Shown here piece by piece: positions 9,216 to 61,272 of a DNA stretch of 64,000 bases (within the stretch, counting starts at the first letter, position 1; each line of letters starts with the position of its first letter). The notes under the pieces are model-generated. The model made no database searches. It saw only the letters and a program-made list of their open reading frames with translations, and had not been told where the DNA came from. Source of the DNA: Octopus vulgaris. Its lineage: Eukaryota. The stretch spans positions 99,572,001 through 99,636,000 of the forward strand of contig OX597814.1 of NCBI GenBank assembly GCA_951406725.2, given 5' to 3'. The translations under genes were made by a program, and so were the position numbers.

Positions 9216-10520
9216 CGAGGGACGTTCAATAAGTAATGCCTCTGACCCACTAGCAGTGATGAAAAGAATGCCATTCTGAACATTTTGGCCGCAACTGTAT
9301 ATATATTTATATCTCTATAGAGTAAGTGGCAAATTACAGCTCTGAATTAATTGTGGTTTCTGATTTACAGGTGTTTGAACCGAGTCAAGTGTGAAATGGA
9401 GACTGTTGAGTGTCGAGCAGTGATCCGGTTTTTGTATTTGAAAGGACGCACACCACGGGAGACTTTTGATGAAATGAAAGTAACTTATGGTGATGATGCC
9501 CCATCATATGACCTTGTAAAACGCTGGCATCGTGAATTCAAACATGGTCGGAACTCTGTGGAAACAGCTCCCAGATCTGGTCGCCCTCTTCTGCCATTGA
9601 TGAGGCATCTGTCCGTCAAGTTGAGGCTGCCATTTTGGAAGATCGACGCATAATTATTCGCCAAATAGCCCATGAGGTCAAGATTAGTACCGGGTCTGTG
9701 GAAACTATCATTCATGATCATTTGCATATGCAAAAGGTGTCTGCCAGATGGATTCCCAGGTTGGTCACGCCTTTCCAGAAGCAAGAACGCGTCGAGTGCT
9801 CGAGGGTGAATTTGGAGATGTGCCAAGAAGATGAGTCAAAATTTTTCAAAAGACTGATTACACAGGATGAAACCTGGGTCCATCACGATGATCCAGAGAC
9901 CAAAGCCCAGTCAATGCAGTGGAAGCACCGTGACTCACCCCCTCCAAAGAAGGCAAGGGTGCAGCCCTCCGCTGGCAAGGTCATGCTCACAGTCTTCTGG
10001 GACCAGGACGGAGTAGTGATGACAGATTTCCTGGCAAATGGTACCACAATTGCAAGAGCCTATTATGCTTCACTTTTGAGGAAATTAAGAGAAGTTATCA
10101 AAATCAAGAGGCGGGGTAAGATCAGCAAAGGCATCCTCCTCCTGCAGGACAACGCTCCGGTCCACAACTCGCTTGTCGCCAGATCAGAAGCACAGGCGTA
10201 TGGCTATGAACTCCTCCCCCATCACCCCTATTCTCCTGACCTTGCACCCTCTGATTTTCACCTCTTCCCAGCCATGAAGTTGTTTTTGAAAGGAAAACGT
10301 TTCCCAGATGATGCAGCATTGATTTCTGAAGTCACGTTGAGGTTGGGGGACCAAGCTGGGTTCTTCTACAAAAACGGTCTCCAGAGCCGCATCAAACGAT
10401 GGGAGAAATGCGTAACTCTGGGTGGTTCCTATGTAGAAAAAGACTACTAACTGTGCCAAGTTTCGTTGCTCTACAGCTATGGGAAGTGGGTCAGGGGCAT
10501 TACTTATTGAACGCCCCTCG
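9216..10520 (+). mobile_element. Full-length mariner (Tc1/mariner, DD34D) DNA transposon
   Basis: ~36-bp TIRs CGAGGG.CGTTCAATAAGTAATGCC.CTGACCCACT, TA target duplication at both ends, ~1.3 kb. Confidence 0.95.
9396..10450 (+). CDS. Mariner transposase with one frameshift near 9585
   Basis: N-terminal HTH region, WIPRL, TQDETW, QDNAPVH, YSPDLAPSDFHLF. Confidence 0.9.
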
Positions 10521-10684: not shown

Positions 10685-10854
10685 GAGTGGCTGTGTGGTA
10701 GGTAGCTTGCTAACCAGCCACATGGTTCCGGGTTCAGTCCCACTGCGCGGCATCTTGGGCAAGTGTCTTCTGTTATAGCCCCGGGCCGATCAATGCCTTG
10801 TGAGTGGATTTGGTAGACAGAAACTGAAAGAAGCCTGTCGTATATATGTATATA

Positions 10855-11650: not shown

Positions 11651-11718
11651 GACTTGTCAATGTAAATATCGATGAATGGCGTTAACTGTAGCTAGCACTC
11701 TGAAAATTATATATATGA

Positions 11719-11755
11719 GGCGTAGGAGTGGCTGTGTGGTAAGTAGCTTGCTAAC
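11719..11755 (+). mobile_element. 5' part of a family-1 SINE interrupted by the retroelement array
   Basis: GGCGTAGGAGTGGCTGTGTGGTAAGTAGCTTGCTAAC matches the head of the SINE whose 5' end is at 51128 (minus strand). Confidence 0.9.
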
Positions 11756-12111
11756 TACGGTTTGGACGCGTTTTCTTCCCGGTAAGAGTTTTGCTGTGTT
11801 ATTAATTGTTGAATTCCTACTACTGAAAATTTGCCTTTAAACGTTGCTGAACTGTCTTGTTCTCCGGTTTTACCGGGAAATAATTGAATAATTTCTTACC
11901 GTTGAACTGTTAGCCACTGTGGCTTTTTATTTACGTGACTATATATAGTCCTGCCAGACTATTTTCGTGCCCCTCCCCCGAATGGGGGTGGGAATTGGAA
12001 TTTTTGAACTGCTTTTTTGAACTACTTTGGAAGAAAAACTTTCTATAGGTTTCCCAGTTTTGTGGGAAACCAATATTCGTAATTTTTGTGTTGTCTAATT
12101 TCAACAGAATA

Positions 12112-13514
12112 ATGTCTGTTGAAATTATTCACGAAAGTAGTGCTCTTGAGGAGAGCAATGTTAAAAAATTTTCTGAGGTAGCCGCAGTGGCTACCGAGAA
12201 GATTGACATCGATGTCAACCAGCTCGTCGAGCTATTTAAAAGAATGCAAGAGGAGGGTGGTGATGTTAAAATATCACCCTCCGCCAGTATCGTGGAGACC
12301 GAGAAGCGGACCGTAGTGTTTAAAACTTTCTGTCCACAAAGCAGAAGGTTCAAACACTTTGAAAAAAGCACCATCGAGAAATGCCTGTCCCCGATTTGGA
12401 AGGACATCGTGTACGTCGCCAGGGGACGGGCATATGGCACTGTGGATGTCCGCTTCTCGGGGGAAGAAATGGCCCGCGGGCATTCTGTGAACCCCCTAAA
12501 ACCAAGGAGGTGGTACTTTTTCCAAGCTATAGGGGACGCAGGTCGTCCCGGGTCAGGATTGTAGAAGCCCCGCCGGACGTAGATCCGGTAGAGGTAGTGG
12601 CCGCCCTGTTATATAAAAGGGCGGACAAAATAAAAATACTAGAAGTAACATGCTCTACCCCTCGATTTTGGCTCGGGCGTAACATTAATATATTAATTCA
12701 AGGAACAGCGGAGGACCTGCAGCTCCTTCCTGAGAGGGTGCTCGTGGGCGAGAACGTAGCCCTCAGGGTACAGGTCGAAGGCCGAAAACCCACCTGTTAC
12801 GCCTGCAGCAAAAAGGGCCACATTCGTGTAGACTGTCCAGACAAGCAAAAGAAACCGCAGACACCAGGCCCCTCAGATAATAAAAAAGTCCCTACCCTTG
12901 CAAACACACCTACCCCTACAAAAACAAAAATCCCACTCCTGCTGTTACGGTGCCAACCCCAAAACAGACTGAAGAAAAAAACCCAGCCCTCGCACTCACA
13001 AACCCCTACACTATTAAAACCTCCCACCCCCTAAAAACTGCGGCGCCTACCGAACAAACTATTGCTACCACAGACGATACCATGGAGGTATCAGAGGGGG
13101 GATTTACACCAGTTCGTAAAAGAATTCGTGCAGCATCCCCGTCCACATCCCCTACAAAAAATAATAAAAACAAAGACACACCACAGACACGGAAAAAAAA
13201 AATCCCGCTCAACTGGCCCAGAAAAAGAAGACAAAAAAGAAAATGAACTCATATTAATTGAATTCGACACACAAGACAAATACATAAACGATATTGTGGT
13301 TCAGCATCAGTCAGCAAGACTGTACAACAAATACAAAGATCGAAATAGACACGCGTGGATTGCGGAAACAACGTTCAAACAATTAAAAGACAGACACCCA
13401 AACGCCATCCGGCATATCGCGAACTTGCCGGACTATCTGAAGAAAGAGGAGAAAGAAGGGGCCCACAAACGTGTGGTGAGGTCGGCCCCCACCTCTCCAA
13501 CGAAATGTAAGTAG
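12112..13514 (+). CDS. A1 ORF1, gag-like nucleic-acid-binding protein with zinc knuckle (3 homopolymer frameshifts)
   Basis: CYACSKKGHIRVDC knuckle, P/T/K-rich linker; the frame fragments join at A-runs. Confidence 0.85.
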
Positions 13515-13530
13515 AACCTTTACTTTTGTA

Positions 13531-16500
13531 ATGGCTTCGCTTAACCTTGGTTGTTTAAATGTACGTGGTCTGAGTTCGAAGTGGAAGCAGGCTTGTTTCC
13601 TCGACGACCTCAGATCACATGATATACATGTGATGGTTGCTACAGAGACCAAGCTGGACAGCCTACAAACCTTCTCGCTTCTCCTGAATGGCTACGAGAA
13701 AATCATGTCTCCTGGCCAGACCGGAGGGCGAGGGGGCGTAGTGGTACTGATCCGTAAAGACTTGGCTCTACAGACAAGTACAGTCTATGTAGACCCAGAA
13801 GGTGGGCTGGTCGTCCTTGATGTGACATACAGCAGTAAGGCCTTCAGGTTGATCGGACTCTATGCACCTTGTGCTAGAGGTTTCCAAACTGATTTTTATC
13901 GGCGCCTAGAGGGCTTTCTCGTGACGTCGAAGACTTTAGTGATATTAGGGGACTTTAATGCTATCGTTGACGTACACATCGATAGCGTTGGCTCGATCTA
14001 TAGGAAAGTGAACTCACGTCTCGTGGATCTGCTTAAGCGGTTTCAGCTAGCAGATCGTTACAGACTTGACCATCCGAACGTCCCAGAGTGGACCTGGATG
14101 AGTGGCGACGGAAGGTTCAAGTCTTATCTAGACAGGATAGTGATAAGAACTAGAGATAAGTCTAGTTTTAGTTGTCCACAGCTCGTCCAGGTGCCCTATA
14201 CTGACCATAGAATGGTCACGTGTAGACTGGACATAGATAGCACACTTAAGATAGGAACCGGCTACTGGAAGCTGAACAAGTCTATTTTGACACACGAGGC
14301 ATACCGTAGCCGGATTAAGGTGTTAGTGCAGAGGGCGTTAACCGGAGCCGTGGTTAATAACCGGTGGTGGTTCACCCTCAAAAGAGCCATTCGATTCGAG
14401 TCCATTAGATTTAGTAAACAACTAAGACTAGATAGGGCTAGAATAGAAGGGCAACTAGTTAAGAACTTAGAGGAGGCGTTGAGGTTGGGCTCTGCATCTC
14501 ACATTTTAGCGGCGAGAACGGCATTAGACCGTCACCTCAAAACCAAACATGAGGGATGTAGAGTCCGGGCTAAAGTACGAGCATTGGGCCGTGAGGGAAT
14601 TAATGTTGCCGGATGGGCCCGTACGATAGAAACACAGCGTGGAAACGATGCCACAATTGGGTCTCTTGTTGATGAAAACGGATGCACGATCAAGAAGCGG
14701 GACGAGATGTGTGAGGCACTCCACAAGCACTTCGCCGAGTTGTTCGGGAGGAGCGGGACGCTGGATCATGGTGAGGCCCTTAGGGACTTCCTGTCTGGTG
14801 GCCCGCGCCTCTCGACACGAGAGGCTGAGTGCTGTGAAGGGCCAATCACAGCCGAGGAAGTAATCGAGGTGTTGGGCAAGTGCCCCGGGGAGAAGTCGCC
14901 GGGTCTCGATGGTCTGCCCTATGAATTTTATAGAAGTATGCCAAACTTGTTCGTGCACCTGCTGGCTAGCGTCTACGCCAACTGGCAGCAGAATGGGAGA
15001 ATTCCCAAGTCTGCGAGCCGGGGGCGGTGACCTTGATCAGGAAGGACCCGAACAAGGGGGACGAGATAGGGAACTTCAGGCCCATAACTCTGTTAAACAC
15101 AGAGTTAAAGATTCTGGCCAAGGTGCTAGCAAAAGGTTGGCGCGGGTCGTGGACAAACTTGTCGGGGAAGCGCAAACGTGCGCTATCCCCGGCAGAACGA
15201 TCCACGACAATCTCCACCTTATACGCTACTCCTTAGAGAGGGTGGGGAAGCTTTCTGGCGCAGGGGGAGCACTGGTACATTTAGACCAGTCCAAAGCATT
15301 TGATAGGGTCGACCATCGGTACCTGGCGGCGGTCCTCGGAGAGGCTGGCCTAGGCCCGACCTTTCGAGGTTGGATCGCTGCTTTGTATAGCGACATCGAG
15401 TCTGTAGTCAAGGTGAACGGTTCCTTTTCGAAGCCGTTCAGGATCGAGCGTTCAGTTCGTCAAGGGTGTCCCCTGTCCTCGCTCCTATACGTATTGGCTC
15501 TTGAGCCTTTGCTGCGGAAGTTGGAGGCACTAGGGGCGCGCCGCATGATCTATGGTGTGGAAGAGGAGCTACGGCGTATGCGGATGACACCTCCATCATC
15601 GTGGCAGACGAAGGCCAGCTTCCAGTGGTGGAAGAGGCCATAAAAAGCTACGAGGCGGTGGCAGGAGCAAAGGTTAACAAGGACAAGTCGGTCGGTTTGC
15701 AACTCGGCACCTGGAGGGGCAAGCCGATGCCGTCCAATAACGTCGTAGGGCGTTGGACGGAAGGTCCTGTTAAGCTGCTCGGAGTCTGGTTCGGGCCAGA
15801 CCTCCAGATTGAGAAAAATTGGAGTGAGGTGGCCAACAAGGTGACCGCTCTAACCCAGACCTGGTCTGGGCGGGCGTTATCCCTGCTAGGGAAGTCGGGG
15901 GTGGTGCAGATGTTTATAGCATCAGTAATCACCTACCGTCTGACCGTGGTGCCTTGCCCCGATTTGTGGGTGAACAAGTTGGAGAGAATCCTTTTCCGAT
16001 TTTTGTGGAAAGGAGGAAAGCCACTTGTAAAGCGCTCTGTCTGCTGCCAGAAACCACTAAAGGGTGGGCTAGGGATGCCTTGGCTGAGGATGCGAAAACT
16101 CGCGTTAAGGTTGAGGCACCTCTGGCTTTACCTGGATGGAGAGCAGGTGTGGTCGCCGCACGTCCGGTTCTACCTTCCCCAGTTAACATCCCTAACGGAC
16201 ATCGGTGCATGGATCAAGCGGAGACCTAAACTGAGTGAATGGCATTTGGAGTGCCGTCAGGCGCTCCAGCTACTATCTCGGGTGGGCAACGCCGGCAACA
16301 GGAGTTCCACCACGGATTTCTATAGCGGGTTAGTGGAGATTAAGTCCGAAGACGCCTTGGGGAGACCCTGGGCTACGATGAAAATCAGTTGATCAACCTG
16401 TTCCGGAGGACGTTCGGGCCGGGGTATCTGGATAATTACCAGAAATCCCTAGCCTGGCAATGTTTCCGTGCGGCTTTACCTGTTCGCGACAAGCTGTCAA

Positions 16501-16928
16501 GGCACGGTAGTGCCGTCTCGCCGACATGCCCGCGATGTGAGCAGAATAGGGAGACCGTCTTGCACGCATTCGTGGAGTGTCCGGAGTTATCGGGACTGAT
16601 AGCTTTTGTAGAACAACTGTTGTCAGTGATGGGAAGAGTACAGCTATCAGCTGAGTCTATCATCGAGATTGTGCCGCCCCCTTTCCTTAACAGGGAAAGA
16701 AAGGCTTGTTTTTTCTGTGTAGTAGCCATATTGAAAGAAACAGTATGGAAGACGCGTACGAAAGGTATAGTGACAGGCACCTTTGTCTCCGGCCAGGGGT
16801 TGATTAACTTTTTTAGTTACCACCTCAGTAGCAAAATCAGGCTGGAGAAGAGGTGTCTGTCACAAGATATGTTTGTGAAAAGATGGAAGCCTGTGGCATA
16901 CAAGATGGGTATGTTTGGCACCAGGTAA
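13531..16928 (+). CDS. A1 ORF2, AP endonuclease + reverse transcriptase + C-terminal zinc-binding domain (4 homopolymer frameshifts)
   Basis: LNVRGL, ATETK, LGDFNA, YLDR, TDH, GYWKLN, KSPGLDGLPYEFY, FRPITLLN, LDQSKAFDRVDH, VRQGCPLS, AYADD, GGLGMP, CPRC..ETVLHAFVEC. Confidence 0.92.
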
Positions 16929-17171
16929 GTGTGACCGGATCAGAAAGTAAAGGTTCTACCCGGATGGCTGGGTGTCCGTCCTTCGACATGATCATTAATA
17001 TTTTTAAACATTGCCTTCGTAAAATTCATTGTTTATAATCTTATCCGTAATTTCATTCGAAAATTGTAACTGTGTTAAGCTACTTCACCCTTTATATTTG
17101 TCTGTCCTTGTTTGTCCCCTCTTTGTAAATGCCTAAATGGCAAATTATATGAAATAAAGTAGCTTGCTAAC

Positions 17172-19143
17172 TGCGCATGTGCGAGTCAGTGTTGTGTTTG
17201 CCACTGAAGCAGTGAAGATGTGCTTTTGAAGCCGTCTTGAATTGAAAACTTTGGAAGCCACATGTAAGGTAAGATTCTGTTTTCTGGGTCCAGTGGGAGT
17301 TTTTGTTGAGAATTATTTTTTACATGCAGGAAGTCCTACTGGATTCAGAATTCTGATTCTGCCGACATGTGGCAAATATATTTTTCTCGCTGAGAAAATT
17401 TTTGGGGCGTATCCGTCTTCGAATTGTATTGTGCTGTGAAGAACTACCAATTTTACACCAATTCATGTGGAAGTTGTGCGATCCTGGTTCGATTTAGGCC
17501 GGGAGTACCAAATGGCCAAAAGGATTTTGCTGCGTTTTTGACTTTCTTTTTAACTTTATTTGACTTTCTTTTCAACTTTATTTGACTCTCTCCTTTTTTC
17601 ATTGTGACTTTCTTCGGATTTCCTTTTCTTCTCGTCTTTTAGTTTTATTCTAAATACATTTATTTAAAAAAAAACAAAAAAACATGGCAACAAAAGAAAC
17701 CACCGCTTTGGAATGGGAGGTCATCCCACCCAAAACGTGGATTGAAAGTCTTGAGAAGAGGACGGTGGTCCTACGAACCTATTCTAGGTCGCGTGGAGCC
17801 ATTGCCCTCTTCGACAGGAATACTATAGAGAAAGAGTTGGGGGACTACCTGCCAACTATAAAATTTATTTCTCGGGGGACTAAATTTGTAACGGTGTGGT
17901 TGCTGTTTGGTACCCCCGAGGAAGCTAGCAGATTTGCTAGCGAGCCACTGGAGGGAGAGGAAATTTTGTTCCTCCTCTCGTATTGTGGCAGAAAAGTGAA
18001 AAGAGCCTGGGTGTGTGGGCTGCCCCCGGGCACGGAGGCGGAATGGATCGAGAAGACCATCCGGTGAGGCCTGGGGGATAGCGGACCCAGACTGCTGAGT
18101 GTGAAGGTGGCTCCCGCGGCCGCCTGGGAGGGGTCGAGGGCAACTTTAACCCTGTGGACACCGGTAGCCGTGGGAGAAATGAAATTCCCGGACTTCCTGA
18201 GAATGGCTGGGCACAGGTACCCGGTGATACTCGAGGGTCGCCCCCCCAAGTGTCACCTGTGCCTGAAGCCCGGACATATCAGGAGGAATTGTCCCAGGGG
18301 CCGTGGTGGTGCCCCGGAGCAGAGAGGGGAAAAGGCGCCCGCCGCCCCCTCATTGGAGGGGAGACGATGGAAGTCGTGGAGGAGGTTGCCTCCACGAAAA
18401 GAAAGAGAAAGGCGAGCAACAATGGTTGCCCGCCAAAGAACGCTCAGGGGGCGAAGGGGGATAGCAATCCCCCGTGTCTGGTGACGGAGTCCCCTGGGTC
18501 AGCAGTCTCCCCCAAAAGAAGGAGGAGAAAAAGGAGAGGTCGGACGACTGACGTTTCTGTGTCGCCGACGGAGCCGCGGGTGGGATGTGTGCCACCCGCG
18601 GACAAGGCTCCGCCAGTAGGAAGTGTGCCACTGACGGAGCAGTGTGAGGTCCCTCCCTGTGAAGAGGAGATGCTTCTCCTCCTTTACCACAAGGGAGAGG
18701 AGGTGGAAAGATTCTTGAATGGCTTGGGTGACCGAGAGCGTAAGGGCACGGTCGGCTCAAGGAGTCCGTTATGGCCTCCGCGGGTAGCTGCGGAAAAAAT
18801 AACAGAAGATACTTTGTCAAGGGTCGCAGAGACCTTTGAAAAGAAAGACTTTACTTTTCTCTTTGCAGGCCCTGACTTGTCGTCGCAGAGTTGTCTGCAG
18901 GCGGCAAGACAATTTGCTTCGGGGACCTGACGAGAAGAATTGTTGAACATTTTTTATGTAATTTGAATCATTGTTTATTGAATGTATTTATTGAAACATT
19001 GTTTTAGAGAAGCGAAAGTCGGCGGGCGCTTTCGACTTCTCCCATCACCATCTTCATCCACCACCACCATCATCCCTTAATGTCCTTGTCCAGCCCGTAG
19101 CTACTACTCTGTGTGCTGCCCTAGTGGCAAATTATATAAAATA
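17172..19143 (+). mobile_element. ORF1-only non-autonomous retroelement (element B) related to the Tx1 LINE
   Basis: Bounded by identical 15-bp target copies (17157-17171, 19144-19158); ORF1 homolog only; 3' end TGCC-N5-GGCAAATTATAT.AAATA shared with A. Confidence 0.85.
17684..18930 (+). pseudogene. Element B ORF1 with CCHC knuckle (in-frame TGA at 18065, frameshift near 18360)
   Basis: EKRTVV, TIEK.L, SY.GR, EGRPPKCHLCLKPGHIRRNC and TMEV align with A ORF1 but are strongly diverged. Confidence 0.8.
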
Positions 19144-19586
19144 AAGTAGCTTGCTAACCTCACTGACTGAAGAGTGACTTTGCTTACCTTACTACGGTTT
19201 GGACGCGTTTTCTTCCCGGTAAGAGTTTTGCTGTGTTGTTAATATTACTTCGTACCATCTGGAACTTGTTGAATTTTACTACTGAAAATTTGTTTTTGAA
19301 CGTTGTTGAACTGTCTTGTTCCTCGGTTTTACCGGGGAATAATTGGATAATTTGTTACTGTTGAACTGTTAGCCATAGTGGCTTTTTAATCTACGTGACT
19401 GTATATAGTCTTTCCAGACTATCTTCGTGCCCCTCCCCCGAATGGGGGGGGGGAATTAAACCTAATTTTTGAAATGCTTTTTACCACTCATTGAACTGGA
19501 AGAAAAACTTTTTATAGGTTTCCCAGTTTTGTGGGAAACCAATATTTGTATTTTTTGTGTTGTCTATTACTAATTTCAACAGAATA

Positions 19587-21002
19587 ATGTCTGTTGAGAT
19601 TATCCACGAAAATAGTGCTCTAGAGGAAAGCAATGTTGATAATTGTAGTAAAAAATTGTCGGCGGTAGCCGCAGTGGCAACCGAGAACATTGACATCAAT
19701 GTCAATCAGCTCGTCGAACTATTGAAAAGAATGAAAGAGGAGGGTGGTGATGTTAAAATATCACCCTCCGCCAGTATCGTGGAGACTGAGAAGCGGACCG
19801 TAGTGTTTAAAACCTTCTGTCCACAAAGCAGAAGCTTCAAACACTTTGAAAAGAATACTATCGAGAAATGCCTGTCCCCGATTTGGAAGGACATTGTGTA
19901 CGTCGCCAGGGGAGGGGCATATGACACTGTGGAGGTCCGCTTCTCGGGGGAAGAGGTGGCCCGCAGGCATTCTGTGAATCCCCTAAAAACTAAGGAGGTG
20001 GTACTTCTGCTAACCTATAGGGGACGCAGGACGTCCCGGGTCAGGATTGCAGAAGCACCGCCGGAAGTACATCCTGTAGAGGTAGTGGCCGCCCAGTTAT
20101 ATAAAAAGACGGACAAAATTAAAATATTACAGGTAACATGCTCTGTCCCTCAATATTGGCTTGGGCGAGACATTAATGTAATAATTCAAGGAACACAGGA
20201 GGACCTGCAGGTCCTTCCTGAGAGGGTGCTCGTGGGCGAGAATGTTGCCCTCAGGGTACAGGTCGAAGGCTGAAAACCCACCTGTTACGCCTGCGGCAAA
20301 AAGGACCACATTCGTGTAGACTGTCCAGACAAGCAAAAGAAACCGCAGACTCCAGGCCCCTCAGATAATAACAAAATCCCTACCCTTGCAAACTCACCTA
20401 CCCCTACAAAAAACAAAAAGTCCCACTCATGCTGTTACGGTGCCAACCCCAAAACAAACTGACAAAAAAACCCAGCCCTTGCACTCACAACCCCATCATT
20501 ATTAAAACTTCCCATCCCCTTAAAAACTGCGGCGCCTACTGAACAAAATATTGCTACGCCAGACGATACCATGGAGGTATCAGAGGGGGGATTTACAAAA
20601 GTTCGTAAAAGAACTCGTGCATCATCCCCGTCAACATCCCCTACAAAAAATAATAAAAACAAAGACACACCACAGACACCAAAAAAAAAATCCTGCCCAA
20701 CTGGCCCAGAAAAAGAAGACAAAGAAAATGAACTCATATTAATTGAATATGATACACAAAACAAATATATAAACGATATTGTGGTTCCGCATCACACAGC
20801 AAGACTGTACAACAAACACAAAGATCGAAACGAAAGATGTGCGTGGATTGCGGAAATAACGTTCAAACAATTAAAAGACAGACACCCAAAGGCCATCCGG
20901 CGTATCGCGAACTTGCCGGACTATCTGAAGAAGGAGGAGAAAGAAGGGGCCCACAAATGTGTGGTGAGGTCGGCCCCAACCTCTGCAACGAAATGTAAGT
21001 AG
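19587..21002 (+). pseudogene. A2 ORF1, disrupted
   Basis: Highly similar to A1 ORF1; CGA>TGA at 20271 just before the knuckle. Confidence 0.85.
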
Positions 21003-21019
21003 AACTTTTACGTTTTGTA

Positions 21020-24000
21020 ATGGGTTCTCTTAACCTTGGTTGTTTGAATATGCGTGGTCTGAGTTCGAAGTGGAAGCAGGCTTGTTTCCTCGACGACCTC
21101 AGATCACATGTGATGGTTGCTACAGAGACCAAGCTGGACAGCCTACAAACCTTTTCGCCTCTCCTGAATGGCTACGAGAAAATCATGTCTCCTGGCCAGA
21201 CCGGAGGGCGCGGGGGTGTAGTGGTACTGATCTGTAAAGACTTGGCTCTGCAGACAAGTACAGTCTATGTGGACCCAGAAGGTGGGCTGGCCGTCCTTGA
21301 TGTGACATACAGCAGTAAGGCCTTCAGGTTGATCGGACTCTATGCACCTTGTGCTAGAGGTTTCCAAACTGATTTTTATCGGCGCCTAGAGGGCTTTCTC
21401 GTGACGTTGAAGACTTTAGTAGTATTAGGGGACTTTAATGCTATCGTTGACGTACACATCGATAGCGTTGGCTCGATCCATAGGAAAGTGAACTCACGTC
21501 TCGTGGATCTACTTAAGCGGTTTCAGCTGGCAGATCGTTACAGACTTGACCATCCGAACGTCCCAGAGTGGACCTGGATGAGTGGCGACGGAAGGTTCAA
21601 GTCTTATCTAGACAGGATAGTGATAAGAACTAGAGATAAGTCTAGTTTTAGTTGTCCACAGCTCGTCCAGGTGCCCTATACTGACCATAGAATGGTCAAG
21701 TGTAGACTGGACATAGATAGCACACTTAAGATAGGAACCGGCTACTGGAAGCTGAACAAGTCTATTTTGACTCGCGAGGCATACCGTAGCCGGATTAAGG
21801 AGTTAGTGCAGAGGGCGTTAACCGGAGCCGTGGTTAATAACCGGTGGTGGTTCGCCCTCAAAAGAGCCATTCGATTCGTGTCCATTAGATTTAGTAAACA
21901 ACTAAGACTAGATAGGGCTAGAATAGAAGGGCAACTAGTTAAGAACTTAGAGGAGGCGTTGAGGTTGGGCTCTGCATCTCATATTTTAGCGGCGAGAACG
22001 GCATTAGACCGTCACCTCAAAACCAAACATGAGGGATGTAGAGTTCGGGCTAAAGTACGAGCATTGGGCCGTGAGGGAATTAATGTTGCCGGATGGGCCC
22101 GTACGATAGAAACACAGCGTGGCAACAATGCTACAATTGAGTCTCTTGTTGATGAAAACGGATGCTCGGTCAAGAAGCGGGACGAGATGTGTGAGGCACT
22201 TCACAAGCACTTCGCCGAGTTGTTCGGGAGGAGCGGGACGCTGGATCATGGTGAGGCCCTTAGGGACTTCCTGTCTTGTGTCCCGCGTCTCTAGACACGA
22301 GAGGCTGAGTGCTGTGAAGAGCCAATCACAGCCGAGGAAGTAATCGAGGTGCCCCGGGGAGAAGTCGCCGGGTCTCGATGGGCTGCCCTATGAATTTTAT
22401 AAAAGTATGCCAGACTTGTTCGGGCACCTGCTGGCTAGCGTCTACGCCAACTGGCAGCAGAATGGGAGAATTCTCAAGTCTGCGAGCCGGGGGTGGGGTG
22501 ACGTTGATCAGGAAGGACCCGAGCAAGGGGGACGAGATAGGGAACTTCATGCCCATAACTCTGCTGAGTTAAAGATTCTGGCCAAAGTGCTAGCAAAAAC
22601 GTTGGCGCGGGTCGTGGACAAACTTGTCGGGGAAGCGCAAACGTGCGCTATCCCTGGCAGAACGATCCACGATAATTCCGCCTTATACGCTACTCCTTAG
22701 AGAGGGTGGGGAAGCTTTCTGGCGCAGGGGGAGCACTGGTACATTTAGACCAGTCCAAAGCATTTGAAAGGGTCGACCATCGGTACTTGGCGGCGGTCCT
22801 CGGAGAGGCTGGCCTAGGCCCGACCTTTTGAGGTTGGATCGCTGCTTTGTATAGCGACATCGAGTCTGTAGTCAAGGTGAACGGTTTCTTTTCGAAGCCG
22901 TTCATGATCGAGCGTTCAGTTCGTCAGGAGTGTCCCCTGTCCTCGCCCCTATACGTATTGACTCTTGAGCCTTTGCTGCGGAAGTTGGAGGCACTAGGGG
23001 GGGGGGGGGCACCGCATGATCTATGGTGTGGAAGAGGAACTACGGCGTATGCGGATGACACCTCCATCATCGTGGCAGATGAAGGCCAGCTTCCAGTCGT
23101 GGAAGAGGCCATCAAAAGCTACGAGGCGGTGACAGGAACAAAGGTTAACAAGGACAAGTCGGTCGGTTTGCAACTCGGCACCTGGAGGGATTAGCCGATG
23201 CCGTCTAATAACGTTGTGGGGCGTTGGACGGAAGGTCCTGTTAAGCTGCTCGGCGTCTGGATTGGCCCAGACCTCCAGATAGAGAAAAATTGGAGTGACG
23301 TGGCCAGCAAGGTGACCGCTCTAACCCAGACCTGGTCTGGGCGGGCGTTATCTCTGCTAGGGAAAGCAGAGGTGGTGCAGATGTTTATAGCATCCACTAA
23401 TCATCTACCGTCTGACCGTGGTGCCTTGCCCCGATTTGTGTCTGAACAAGTTGGAGAGAATCCTTTTCCGCTTTTTGTGGAAAGGAGGAAAGCCACTTGT
23501 AAAGCGCTCTGTCTGCTGCCAGAAACCTCTAAAGGGTGGGCTAGGGATGCCTTGGCTGAGGATGCGAAGACTCGCGTTAAGGTTGAGGCACCTTTGGCTT
23601 TACCTGAATGGAGAGCAGGTGTGGTCACCGCACGTCCGGTTCTACCTTCCCCAGTTAACATCCCTAACGGACATCAGTGTATGGATCAAGCGGAAACCTA
23701 AACTGGGTGAATGGCATTTGGAGTGCCGTCAGGCGCTCCAGCTACTCTCTCGGGCGGGCAACGCCTGCAACAAGAGTTCCACCACGGATTTCTATAGTGG
23801 GTTACTGGAACTTATGTCAGAAGACGCCTTAGGGGAAGCCCTGGGCTACGATGAAAATCAGTTGGTCAACCTGTTCCGGAGGACGTTCGGGCCGGGGTAT
23901 CTGGATAATTACCAGAAATCCCTGGCCTGGCAGTGTTTCCGTGCGGCTTTACCTGTTCGCGACAAGCTGTCAAGGCACAGAAGTGCCGTCTCGCCGACAT

Positions 24001-24401
24001 ACCCACGATGTGAGCAGGATAGGGAAACCGTCTTGCACGCATTCGTGGAGTGTCCGGAGTTATCGGGACTGATAGCTTTTGCCGAACAACTGTTGTCAAT
24101 GATGGGAAGAGTACAGCTATCAGCTGAGTCTATCATCGAGATTGTGCCGCTTCCTTTCCTTAACAGGGAAAGAAAGGCTTGTTTTTTCTGTGTAGTAGCC
24201 ATATTGAAAGAAACAGTATGGAAGACGCGCACGAAAGGTATAGTGACAGGCACCTTTGTCTCCGGCCAGGGGTTGATTAACTTTTTTAGTTACCACCTCA
24301 GTTGCAAAATCAGGCTGGAGAAGAGGTGTCTGTCACGAGATATGTTTGTGAAAAGATGGAAGCCTGTGGCATGCAAGCTGAGTATGTTTGGCACCAGGTA
24401 A
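21020..24401 (+). pseudogene. A2 ORF2, disrupted
   Basis: APE, RT and zinc motifs as in A1, with stops, deletions and KAFD>KAFE, QGC>QEC changes. Confidence 0.88.
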
Positions 24402-24633
24402 GTGTGACCGGATCAAAAAGTAAAGGTTCTACCCGGATGGCTGGGTGTCTGTCCTTCGACATGATCACTAAGTAATACTTTTAAACATTGTCTTCGTAAA
24501 GTTCATTGCTTATAATCTTATCCGTAATTTCATTCGAAAATTTTAACTGTGTTAAGCTACTTCACCCTTTATATCTGTCTGTCCTTGTTTGTCCCCTCTT
24601 TGTAAATGCCTAAATAGCAAATTATATGAAATA

Positions 24634-25017
24634 AAATAGCTTGCTTATGAACCACATGGTTCCGGGTTCAATCCCACTGCGTGGCACGTTCGGCAAGTGT
24701 CTTCTACTATAGCCTCGGACTAACGAAAGCCTTGTGAGTGGATTTGGTAGACGGAAACTGAAAGAAGCCTGTCGTGTATGTGTATACATGTATCTGTGTG
24801 AATATGTTTGTGTCTGTGTTTGTCCCCTCAACATCGCTTGACAAATGATACTGGTGTGTTTACGTCCCTGTAACTTAGCGGTTCGGCAAAAGAGACTGAT
24901 AGAATAAGTACTAGGCTTACAAAGAATAAGTCCTGGGGTCGATTTGCTCGACTAAAGGTGGTGCTCCAGCATGGCCACAGTTACATAACTGAAACAAGTA
25001 AAAAGAATAAAAGAGTA
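24634..25017 (+). mobile_element. 3' part of the interrupted family-1 SINE
   Basis: Resumes AAATAGCTTGCTTATGAACCACATGGTTCCGGGTTCAATCCC (B box) and continues through the family-1 tail. Confidence 0.92.
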
Positions 25018-32567: not shown

Positions 32568-39389
<6,822 letters not shown>

Positions 39390-60629: not shown

Positions 60630-61127
<498 letters not shown>

Positions 61128-61272
61128 TACTACAGCCTCGGGGCGACCAAACCCTTGTGAGTGGAATTGATATACGGAAACCGAAAGAAGCCCGTCGTAT
61201 ACATGTATATATATATATTTTATTTCATTTCATCTAGTTTCAGCTCACGAACTGTGACCATGCTGGGGCACC

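Follow-up and report, generated by a model that had tools for sequence, protein, structure and literature searches.

Three elements are stacked inside one SINE

We analyzed a 64,000-nucleotide stretch of the Octopus vulgaris genome (assembly GCA_951406725.2, contig OX597814.1, positions 99,572,001 to 99,636,000 of the forward strand), which we call the window and number from its first base. In it, a short interspersed element (SINE) with a tRNA-like head is cut after base 23 by three elements that lie head-to-tail on the + strand: A1, a young long interspersed element (LINE) of 5.4 kb; B, a 2.0-kb element that carries only the first of the two LINE open reading frames (ORF1); and A2, an older, decayed full-length LINE. 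A1 and A2 belong to one family, which we call family A (92.7% identity by BLAST). A preliminary description made from the letters alone had reported the common orientation, a 15-base sequence (the 15-mer) present exactly at 11741, 17157 and 19144 with a diverged copy at 24634, and a SINE that is rebuilt when 11741-24633 is removed. All of this was borne out. At up to three mismatches, the number that separates the copy at 24634 from the others, the 15-mer has 11 matches in the 64-kb window against 1.62 expected, and 0 of 100 shuffles reached 11. The mismatches at 24634 reflect in part the host SINE's own subtype, so decay is not their sole cause. Excision of the three inserts yields a SINE colinear with the uninterrupted copies at 10685, 43749 and 51128, to which it is 85.5%, 87.7% and 88.8% identical over 163-169 aligned bases.

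The SINE head (11718..11740, +) contains the A-box-like TGGCTGTGTGG (11729-11739, +), and the split comes after TGGCTGTGTGG-T (11729-11740), directly behind the D-loop-like GGT at the end of the A box. The remainder of the SINE, from the target site onward (24634..25017, +), holds the B-box-like GGTTCAATCCC (24665-24675, +). Between them, the 5' junction of A1 (11741..11755, +) rebuilds the target site and is followed by A1 itself (11756..17156, +), which ends in a TGCC-N5-GGCA hairpin and AAATA (17130..17156, +). The A1|B junction, which is the 5' junction of B (17157..17171, +), leads into B (17172..19143, +), with its 3' hairpin at 19117-19129 (+). The B|A2 junction, the 5' junction of A2 (19144..19158, +), reads CTAAC whereas the host SINE has CTTAT, and A2 (19159..24633, +) completes the stack.

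Family A has the two-ORF design of an endonuclease-bearing LINE, the layout expected of the Tx1 clade. In A1, ORF1 (12112-13514, +) contains a CCHC zinc finger (zf-CCHC, PF00098), and ORF2 (13531-16928, +) contains an apurinic/apyrimidinic-like endonuclease (APE; Exo_endo_phos, PF03372), a reverse transcriptase (RT; RVT_1, PF00078) and a C-terminal zinc finger (zf-RVT, PF13966). The zf-CCHC and RVT_1 matches came from A1; A2 has the same layout, with an ORF1 and an ORF2 in pieces (21020-24401, +). Aligned to the L1 endonuclease, family A retains the APE catalytic motifs. Full-length copies extend 34 bases further at the 5' end than A1, whose ORFs are both broken by 1-base indels. A1 differs by 0.35% from a copy with an open ORF2 of 1133 amino acids (L073): over 12459-16358 there are 19 substitutions, plus ten 1-base indels that mostly fall in homopolymer runs. 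Some of these indels may be assembly errors. A2 is 5.3% diverged from A1 and L073 (293 substitutions and 23 indel events against the latter) and 5.1% from a copy on C24. The 1133-amino-acid ORF2 is open in 3 of the 15 full-length copies checked, and another copy (L069) has an ORF1 of 467 amino acids. To judge from these sequences, family A was probably active until recently.

Family A inserts at a single nucleotide of an abundant SINE

The preliminary description had proposed a one-nucleotide SINE target and named the 3' flanks of other genomic copies as the check. These flanks are not random. All 30 copies fetched enter the target at their 3' end, 27 in a SINE body and three in another element, with one of the 30 lacking an A; on the 5' side, all 30, the window's own copy included, abut a SINE head (27) or another element (3). 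Because both sets are best BLAST hits, we also counted the last 27 bases of family A exactly across the whole genome: there are 108 copies, and AAGTAG comes next in 104. Divergent copies, taken from lower-ranked protein-search hits (76-90% identity, two of them young by DNA), sit at the identical base in 37 of 40 cases, 34 by script and three (L226, L255, L257) by eye. Family B uses the same site, with AAGTAGCTT next in 30/30 fetched copies, again counting the one in the window. A degenerate pattern of 3' end plus target matches the genome 887 times and a control 0 times. Of the distinct junction contexts at the fetched loci, AAGTAG follows in 110 of 113 and none has a poly(A) tail; the target's first AA completes an AATAAA at the 3' end of the element. 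One survey treats a family as target-specific if one sequence type makes up more than 20% of its flanks (PMC4494074). At 104/108 and 37/40 for family A and 30/30 for B, the target on these counts is strictly a single nucleotide of the SINE. The exceptions count against that reading: three of the 40 divergent copies lack an exact junction, one resuming slightly downstream in the SINE and two showing none.

The host is a SINE with A- and B-box-like motifs, a tRNA-like head and a short-repeat tail. Of the tRNA genes in this genome, those resembling tRNA-Lys(TTT) give the best alignment to its head (z ~6 versus shuffles). The Rfam tRNA model matched neither an intact copy nor the headless body, so the case for a tRNA origin rests on this direct alignment. 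Ohshima and Okada reportedly described tRNA-derived SINEs from octopus in 1994, and the repeat here resembles them, by description alone, as an abundant tRNA-like SINE; the tRNA-Lys-like head would be compatible with the OK family of the OK/OR pair. Of 33 tRNA calls, 15 (among L305-L328) are dispersed, variously diverged tRNA-Lys(TTT) copies.

A 29-base pattern of the SINE head has 61,263 exact, dispersed matches; these include some 5' junctions of insertions, and exact target sites number at least this many. The preliminary description held that the inserts inactivate the SINE. That may be so for the individual copy hit; it fails for the family, where 887 junctions stand against at least 61,263 sites, and inactivation would be negligible family-wide, at most ~1.4-1.5% of target sites. 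SINE subtypes vary inside the 15-mer (CTAAC, CTTAC, TTTAC). Older family A subfamilies lie mostly in CTTAC-type copies and the youngest clade mostly in CTAAC-type ones (L221-L260 versus L281-L300), and some older elements have CTTAC leaders. It is possible that family A has tracked the SINE subtypes over time.

Families B to E carry ORF1 alone and join family A in arrays

We read seven other arrays, with up to nine units in one SINE, and found family A together with families B, C, D and E. Units of B-E measure 1.5-2.3 kb and code for an ORF1 protein without ORF2. Their ORF1 proteins are 25-38% identical to that of family A (E values 1e-18 to 1e-46); for the B copy in the window, the figure is 29-30% over ~200 amino acids. 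Copies of B, D and E contain a single open frame of 408-415 amino acids, which is broken in the three C copies read. In the window, B has just an ORF1-like frame; this ORF1 (17684-18930, +) is broken there and open, at 414-415 amino acids, in two other copies. The TGCC-N5-GGCA...AAATA 3' end is common to A-E. Given this shared end and site, B-E are most likely mobilized in trans by the ORF2 protein of family A. Folding adds nothing to this case and tells against a structured signal: although conserved in sequence, the 3' hairpin has no advantage in stability over shuffles (z -0.17 and -0.83), and folded junctions likewise did no better than shuffles. The spacers of a U2 gene cluster (L335-L337; G000:C3:20780100-20810000) also hold ORF1 remnants related to A-E at 24-47% identity, apparently amplified together with the U2 unit.

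Stacks appear to grow at the 5' junction. Measured against the nearest sampled relatives, divergence in the window falls from A2 (5.1-5.3%) through B (~1.1-1.7%) to A1. In five B-A pairs elsewhere, the downstream A is more diverged than the upstream B in 10/10 comparisons and the junction variants differ. From both observations together we infer addition on the 5' side, so that A2 would have entered the window SINE before B, and B before A1.

Alternatively, stacks could form in a single event, if the RT, on reaching the 5' end of an RNA, switched to the 3' end of a second one, or if read-through dimers moved together. What speaks for this is how often family B has company: at 17 of 21 distinct loci (L081-L110), another element lies directly downstream, a recognized relative in 16 and an unrecognized one at L100, whereas the chance ceiling for choosing an occupied site is ~1.4% (887 over 61,263). 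In addition, units of the large B arrays do not fall along a clean age gradient, some internal pairs being near-identical (0.05-0.1% apart), and one B-C pair (L090) contradicts the rule that the upstream element is younger. These points weigh against purely stepwise growth, and we take the gradient-free arrays and their near-identical pairs to mean that local duplication adds to large B arrays, a comparison of B units based on distances only. Single-event stacking is nevertheless unlikely as a general account, because the window elements differ in age and, in the B-A pairs, the A partner is consistently the more diverged, with a different junction variant. Under sequential insertion at the 5' junction, B would strongly prefer occupied sites; our best guess for the cause is chromatin held open by the promoter of the element already there.

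The 5' junction combines target bases with an element-borne leader

The preliminary description listed the positions of the 15-mer; to see where its bases come from, we compared 36 insertions, 35 full-length copies plus the window's A2, with three truncated copies (L078, L297, L299) set aside. Where the host SINE matches the consensus, 19 of 22 junctions are 15 bases long and 18 are identical to consensus. Hosts that do not match tell the two sources of sequence apart: 14 of 14 family A junctions end in TAAC, and 0 of 14 copy the host base at position 13. The junction is also one base longer in 11/14 non-matching hosts against 3/22 matching ones (Fisher p=2.4e-4). In L078, which is truncated at base 10-11, the repeat of host sequence is just 9-10 bases long. 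The uniform TAAC endings and this short repeat imply that the last bases of the 15-mer are borne by the element. The 15-mer is thus a composite of a shorter target duplication and a leader ending in TAAC.

An ordinary 15-bp target-site duplication with no such leader would be simpler. The predominance of 15-base junctions in matching hosts fits it, Keno-type elements in U2 have a similar 16-base repeat, and R1 makes 14-bp duplications (PMC2718515). Yet a plain duplication should copy position 13 and extend the repeat of L078, and neither is seen; for family A it is contradicted unless gene conversion rewrote every 5' junction, which makes it a very improbable explanation.

The composite junction has its own difficulties. 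The length of the duplication is estimated from a single truncated copy, L078, and another, L297, repeats no host bases. Host type is confounded with LINE age, since most members of the youngest clade occupy matching hosts, and type was the reason for picking nine of the hosts that do not match. Arrays separate out the age confounder, because junction variants there follow the array and not the similarity of the units: neighbors are alike in 29/32 cases (0/20,000 permutations), and B units from different chromosomes bear the variant of their own array even when they differ by just 0.15-0.2%. Such array-bound variants in near-identical units indicate that the resident junction templates the next one. 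Some variants may instead be inherited from the source copy, as the near-identical junction variants of the sister copies L063 and L066 would allow.

Family A is a putative Tx1-type LINE with a differently targeted sister

The RT of family A scores 339 bits with lancelet and sea-cucumber proteins, compared with 229 for human L1 ORF2p. Its nearest relatives are one unnamed protein and one from Argonauta hians, the closest named at 63%. A well-supported sister clade of unnamed proteins (P0004-P0067) is ~45-50% identical, and some of its members fall in clusters of hundreds. In a 40-row RT tree, the lineage groups with U2-flanked elements and the neighbor of a coral protein named TX1 (SH-like approximate likelihood-ratio support 96.6), itself lying outside the U2-flanked clade; 5S- and U1-flanked elements fall outside the group. 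The tree uses proxy anchors in place of curated Tx1 references and was built by a fast search with an unlabeled outgroup and long branches; L177 was dropped as too short. The Tx1 assignment of the preliminary description holds to that extent: the lineage lies among Tx1-type elements as these proxies define them, and we call family A putatively Tx1-type.

Wider searches gave little more. The nearest ESM Atlas clusters carry the same three domains without a clade name, the endonuclease-region search returned no homologue at E<=1e-10, and viral contigs held no relative. Several metagenome contigs carry Keno-like (U2), 5S- and U1-flanked APE-RT elements (L114, L115, L118, L120, L122, L124, L128, L151). 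Of 20 metagenome loci scanned, six are in U2 genes and one at U1, and another has a 5S-like flank by eye; ARAGORN, applied to 50 of 80 metagenome loci, found no tRNA.

The octopus genome also contains a sister LINE family with an ORF2 ~65% identical to that of family A. Among the 40 copies listed, the ten fetched (L355-L364) all end before AAA(T/C)TT(T/C)ATCG; in five this is at the 5' boundary of U2, seven bases before its start, and in the other five it lies in a different repeat with similar sequence (examples at G000:C3:20790460-20790578, C23:43315536 and C4:124136885). One copy of that repeat has a weak hammerhead ribozyme score (E 1.2e-4, below the gathering score), and a second has none. 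L361 is a tandem with a short U2-derived junction.

These relatives raise the question of whether the real target is a host RNA gene, tRNA or U2, with the SINE as a look-alike, or whether family A descends from a U2-targeting Keno. The tRNA-like SINE head and the U2 sites of the sister family lend the idea some color, as does a fixed-register resemblance of the SINE site to the U2 Keno site (55 of 20,000 random 15-mers score as well, in a post hoc comparison). However, no tRNA or U2 gene occurs among the 3' flanks read, 0 of the 33 tRNA genes read hold the target (called from 34 stretches that were fetched out of a scored subset), and the Keno site is intact in all 27 U2 sites read out of 69. 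Once position is left free, the likeness to U2 loses significance (1792 and 1399 of 2000 shuffles), and the tree keeps the lineage apart from the U2-flanked clade. A Keno ancestry by way of a U2-like site was accordingly set aside as a weak lead at most, and an RNA gene as the true target has very little probability.

Insertions are independent and recur across chromosomes

A SINE-LINE composite that formed once and was then amplified as a unit would involve no choice of target. The SINE head always precedes the LINE, and LINE and SINE distances do correlate across all 33 paired loci (rho 0.33), a signal we ascribe tentatively to young copies favoring one SINE subtype. Among the 11 young LINEs, which differ by 0.37% on average, host SINE bodies differ by 5.59%, 15 times more, with no correlation (rho 0.13, p 0.36), so the insertions are independent. 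The hosts comprise several subtypes with unrelated outer flanks, 5'-truncated copies (L078, L297) are still at a SINE head, and five families use one base; hitchhiking of this kind is barely credible.

We give equally little credence to an assembly artefact: contigs from four public runs all fall short of spanning the stretch and the ten homopolymer-rich indels of A1 look like sequencing errors, but the three inserts are distinct sequences (A1 and A2 being 5.3% apart), like junctions recur in seven other arrays and at hundreds of loci on many chromosomes, and a SINE-head|B-type junction is present in contigs of runs X2 and X6. Public-run contigs labeled as three organisms cover A and B, and the SINE head at the window locus occurs in two other organisms. 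Family A is also covered by contigs of run X10, possibly an RNA run, which we do not take as a sign of expression.

A model for insertion and stacking

Taken together, the data very probably describe a recently active, sequence-specific Tx1-type LINE that nicks a tRNA-Lys-like SINE at GTGGT^AAGTAG, rebuilds its site and stacks on the 5' side, accompanied by partners B-E. The family A endonuclease would nick the bottom strand at the site where the copies are found. Reverse transcription would be primed there on an RNA whose 3' end probably reaches a few bases into the target; we infer such read-through priming because poly(A) tails are lacking and the target completes AATAAA. To judge by the one truncated copy L078, the top strand would be opened ~9-10 or more bases downstream. 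Full-length RNAs would start with a short target-like leader ending in TAAC, as seen at the DNA level, whose cDNA may pair with the target overhang in keeping with the junction pattern. A matching target would then give a seamless repeat of 15-16 bases, and a non-matching one a junction usually one base longer.

Each insertion would thus leave a head and junction that form a new target on its 5' side, where later elements would stack, youngest first, as in the window and the B-A pairs. B-E, which share the 3' hairpin and site of family A, would borrow its ORF2 protein.

Comparison with known target-specific elements

The preliminary description knew of no SINE-targeting Tx1 family. We likewise found neither such a family nor a description of family A in the literature searched, whose scope excluded Repbase, Dfam and most subscription journals. 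Tx1 targets listed in the accessible text of PMC4494074 are DNA transposons, LTR elements, U2, U5, 5S, satellites and microsatellites, with no SINE among them. Another report counts 13 recently active L1-Tx1 families in O. vulgaris, without mention of targets in the portion available (PMC13282606).

In targeting, the nearest systems are Tx1-Mar with SINEU in Mariner-N4_AMi of crocodilians and Tx1L in Tx1D of Xenopus, which also combine an interspersed-repeat target with tandem non-autonomous partners (PMC4494074). These insert into DNA transposons or LTR elements, Tx1-Mar in two regions "around" 240 and 830 (PMC4494074). Here, the target is a tRNA-like-headed repeat, 96% of copies use one nucleotide of its promoter, and the partners code for ORF1. 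Keno (U2), Mutsu (5S) and Dewa (tRNA-Leu spacer) are APE-RT LINEs that likewise use a single site in a multicopy small-RNA sequence (PMC3706591, PMC4640811). Those targets are host genes or spacers, whereas family A sits in dispersed SINEs: its flanks are not the tRNA-Leu array spacers of Dewa, and no U2 is present among the flanks read, let alone an insertion before U2 nucleotide 39 like that of Keno. Dada DNA transposons also insert specifically at or near the polymerase III A box, but in true tRNA genes (PMC8869645).

For the arrays, we see the R1 model as the nearest mechanistic precedent by analogy. R1, an APE element of Drosophila 28S rDNA with a downstream top-strand cut, builds tandem arrays in which new copies enter the duplication that lies 5' of older ones, and its RNA has been proposed to include adjoining target sequence that anneals at both junctions (PMC2718515). 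It belongs to another clade with another target, and its 5' target RNA comes from upstream of the nick and leads to deletion (PMC2718515); the leader of family A corresponds to sequence downstream of the nick and would rebuild the site. The partners recall HAL1 (half-L1), a non-autonomous LINE derivative that encodes the ORF1 protein alone (PMC5753468). HAL1 was reported for mammalian L1, while B-E come from a putatively Tx1-type lineage, with ORF1 proteins related to that of their presumed helper, family A, and are target-specific. Family A and its partners thus resemble Tx1-Mar and Keno in targeting, R1 in arrays and HAL1 in partners, and are a member of none of these named families.

Other features of the window

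Three further features were noted. A DNA transposon of the Mariner type occupies 9216-10520; it has terminal inverted repeats and TA flanks, and its transposase is broken (PF01359, E 7.6e-23). An (AT)n tract of 6.8 kb at 32571-39389 may be genuine or a feature of the assembly. An inverted pair of SINE variants (60632-60760 and 60980-61211) surrounds an AT tract; these have another head, with AAGAAG at the site position, and one family A insertion elsewhere (L243) lies in this variant.

Implications

LINEs with strict targets are so far known to use host RNA genes, microsatellites, telomeres and DNA transposons. The promoter of a SINE would be a new type of niche: huge, dispersed, non-essential and itself evolving. 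The target and the endonuclease could be traced together, with young elements in the CTAAC and older ones in the CTTAC subtype. Because hosts differ, hundreds of insertions would let host-derived bases of the 5' junction be separated from RNA-derived ones, which offers a handle on a poorly understood stage of LINE integration, the second-strand step. Copies with an open ORF2 and a close sister with another target make domain-swap tests of APE specificity possible, and if the assignment is true, a sister pair with different single-base targets would be a natural map of a change in that specificity. Site-specific LINEs are also relevant as gene-insertion tools.

We lean, if modestly, toward a broader picture in which an octopod guild of Tx1-type elements, one LINE lineage comprising several subfamilies together with at least four old ORF1-only families, parasitizes the promoter of the major SINE at single-base precision, uses its target-mimicking leader to rebuild or convert the site and prefers sites already occupied, next to a 65% identical sister with another target. 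For octopus genomics, the finding would account for insertions of 2-20 kb nested in SINEs.

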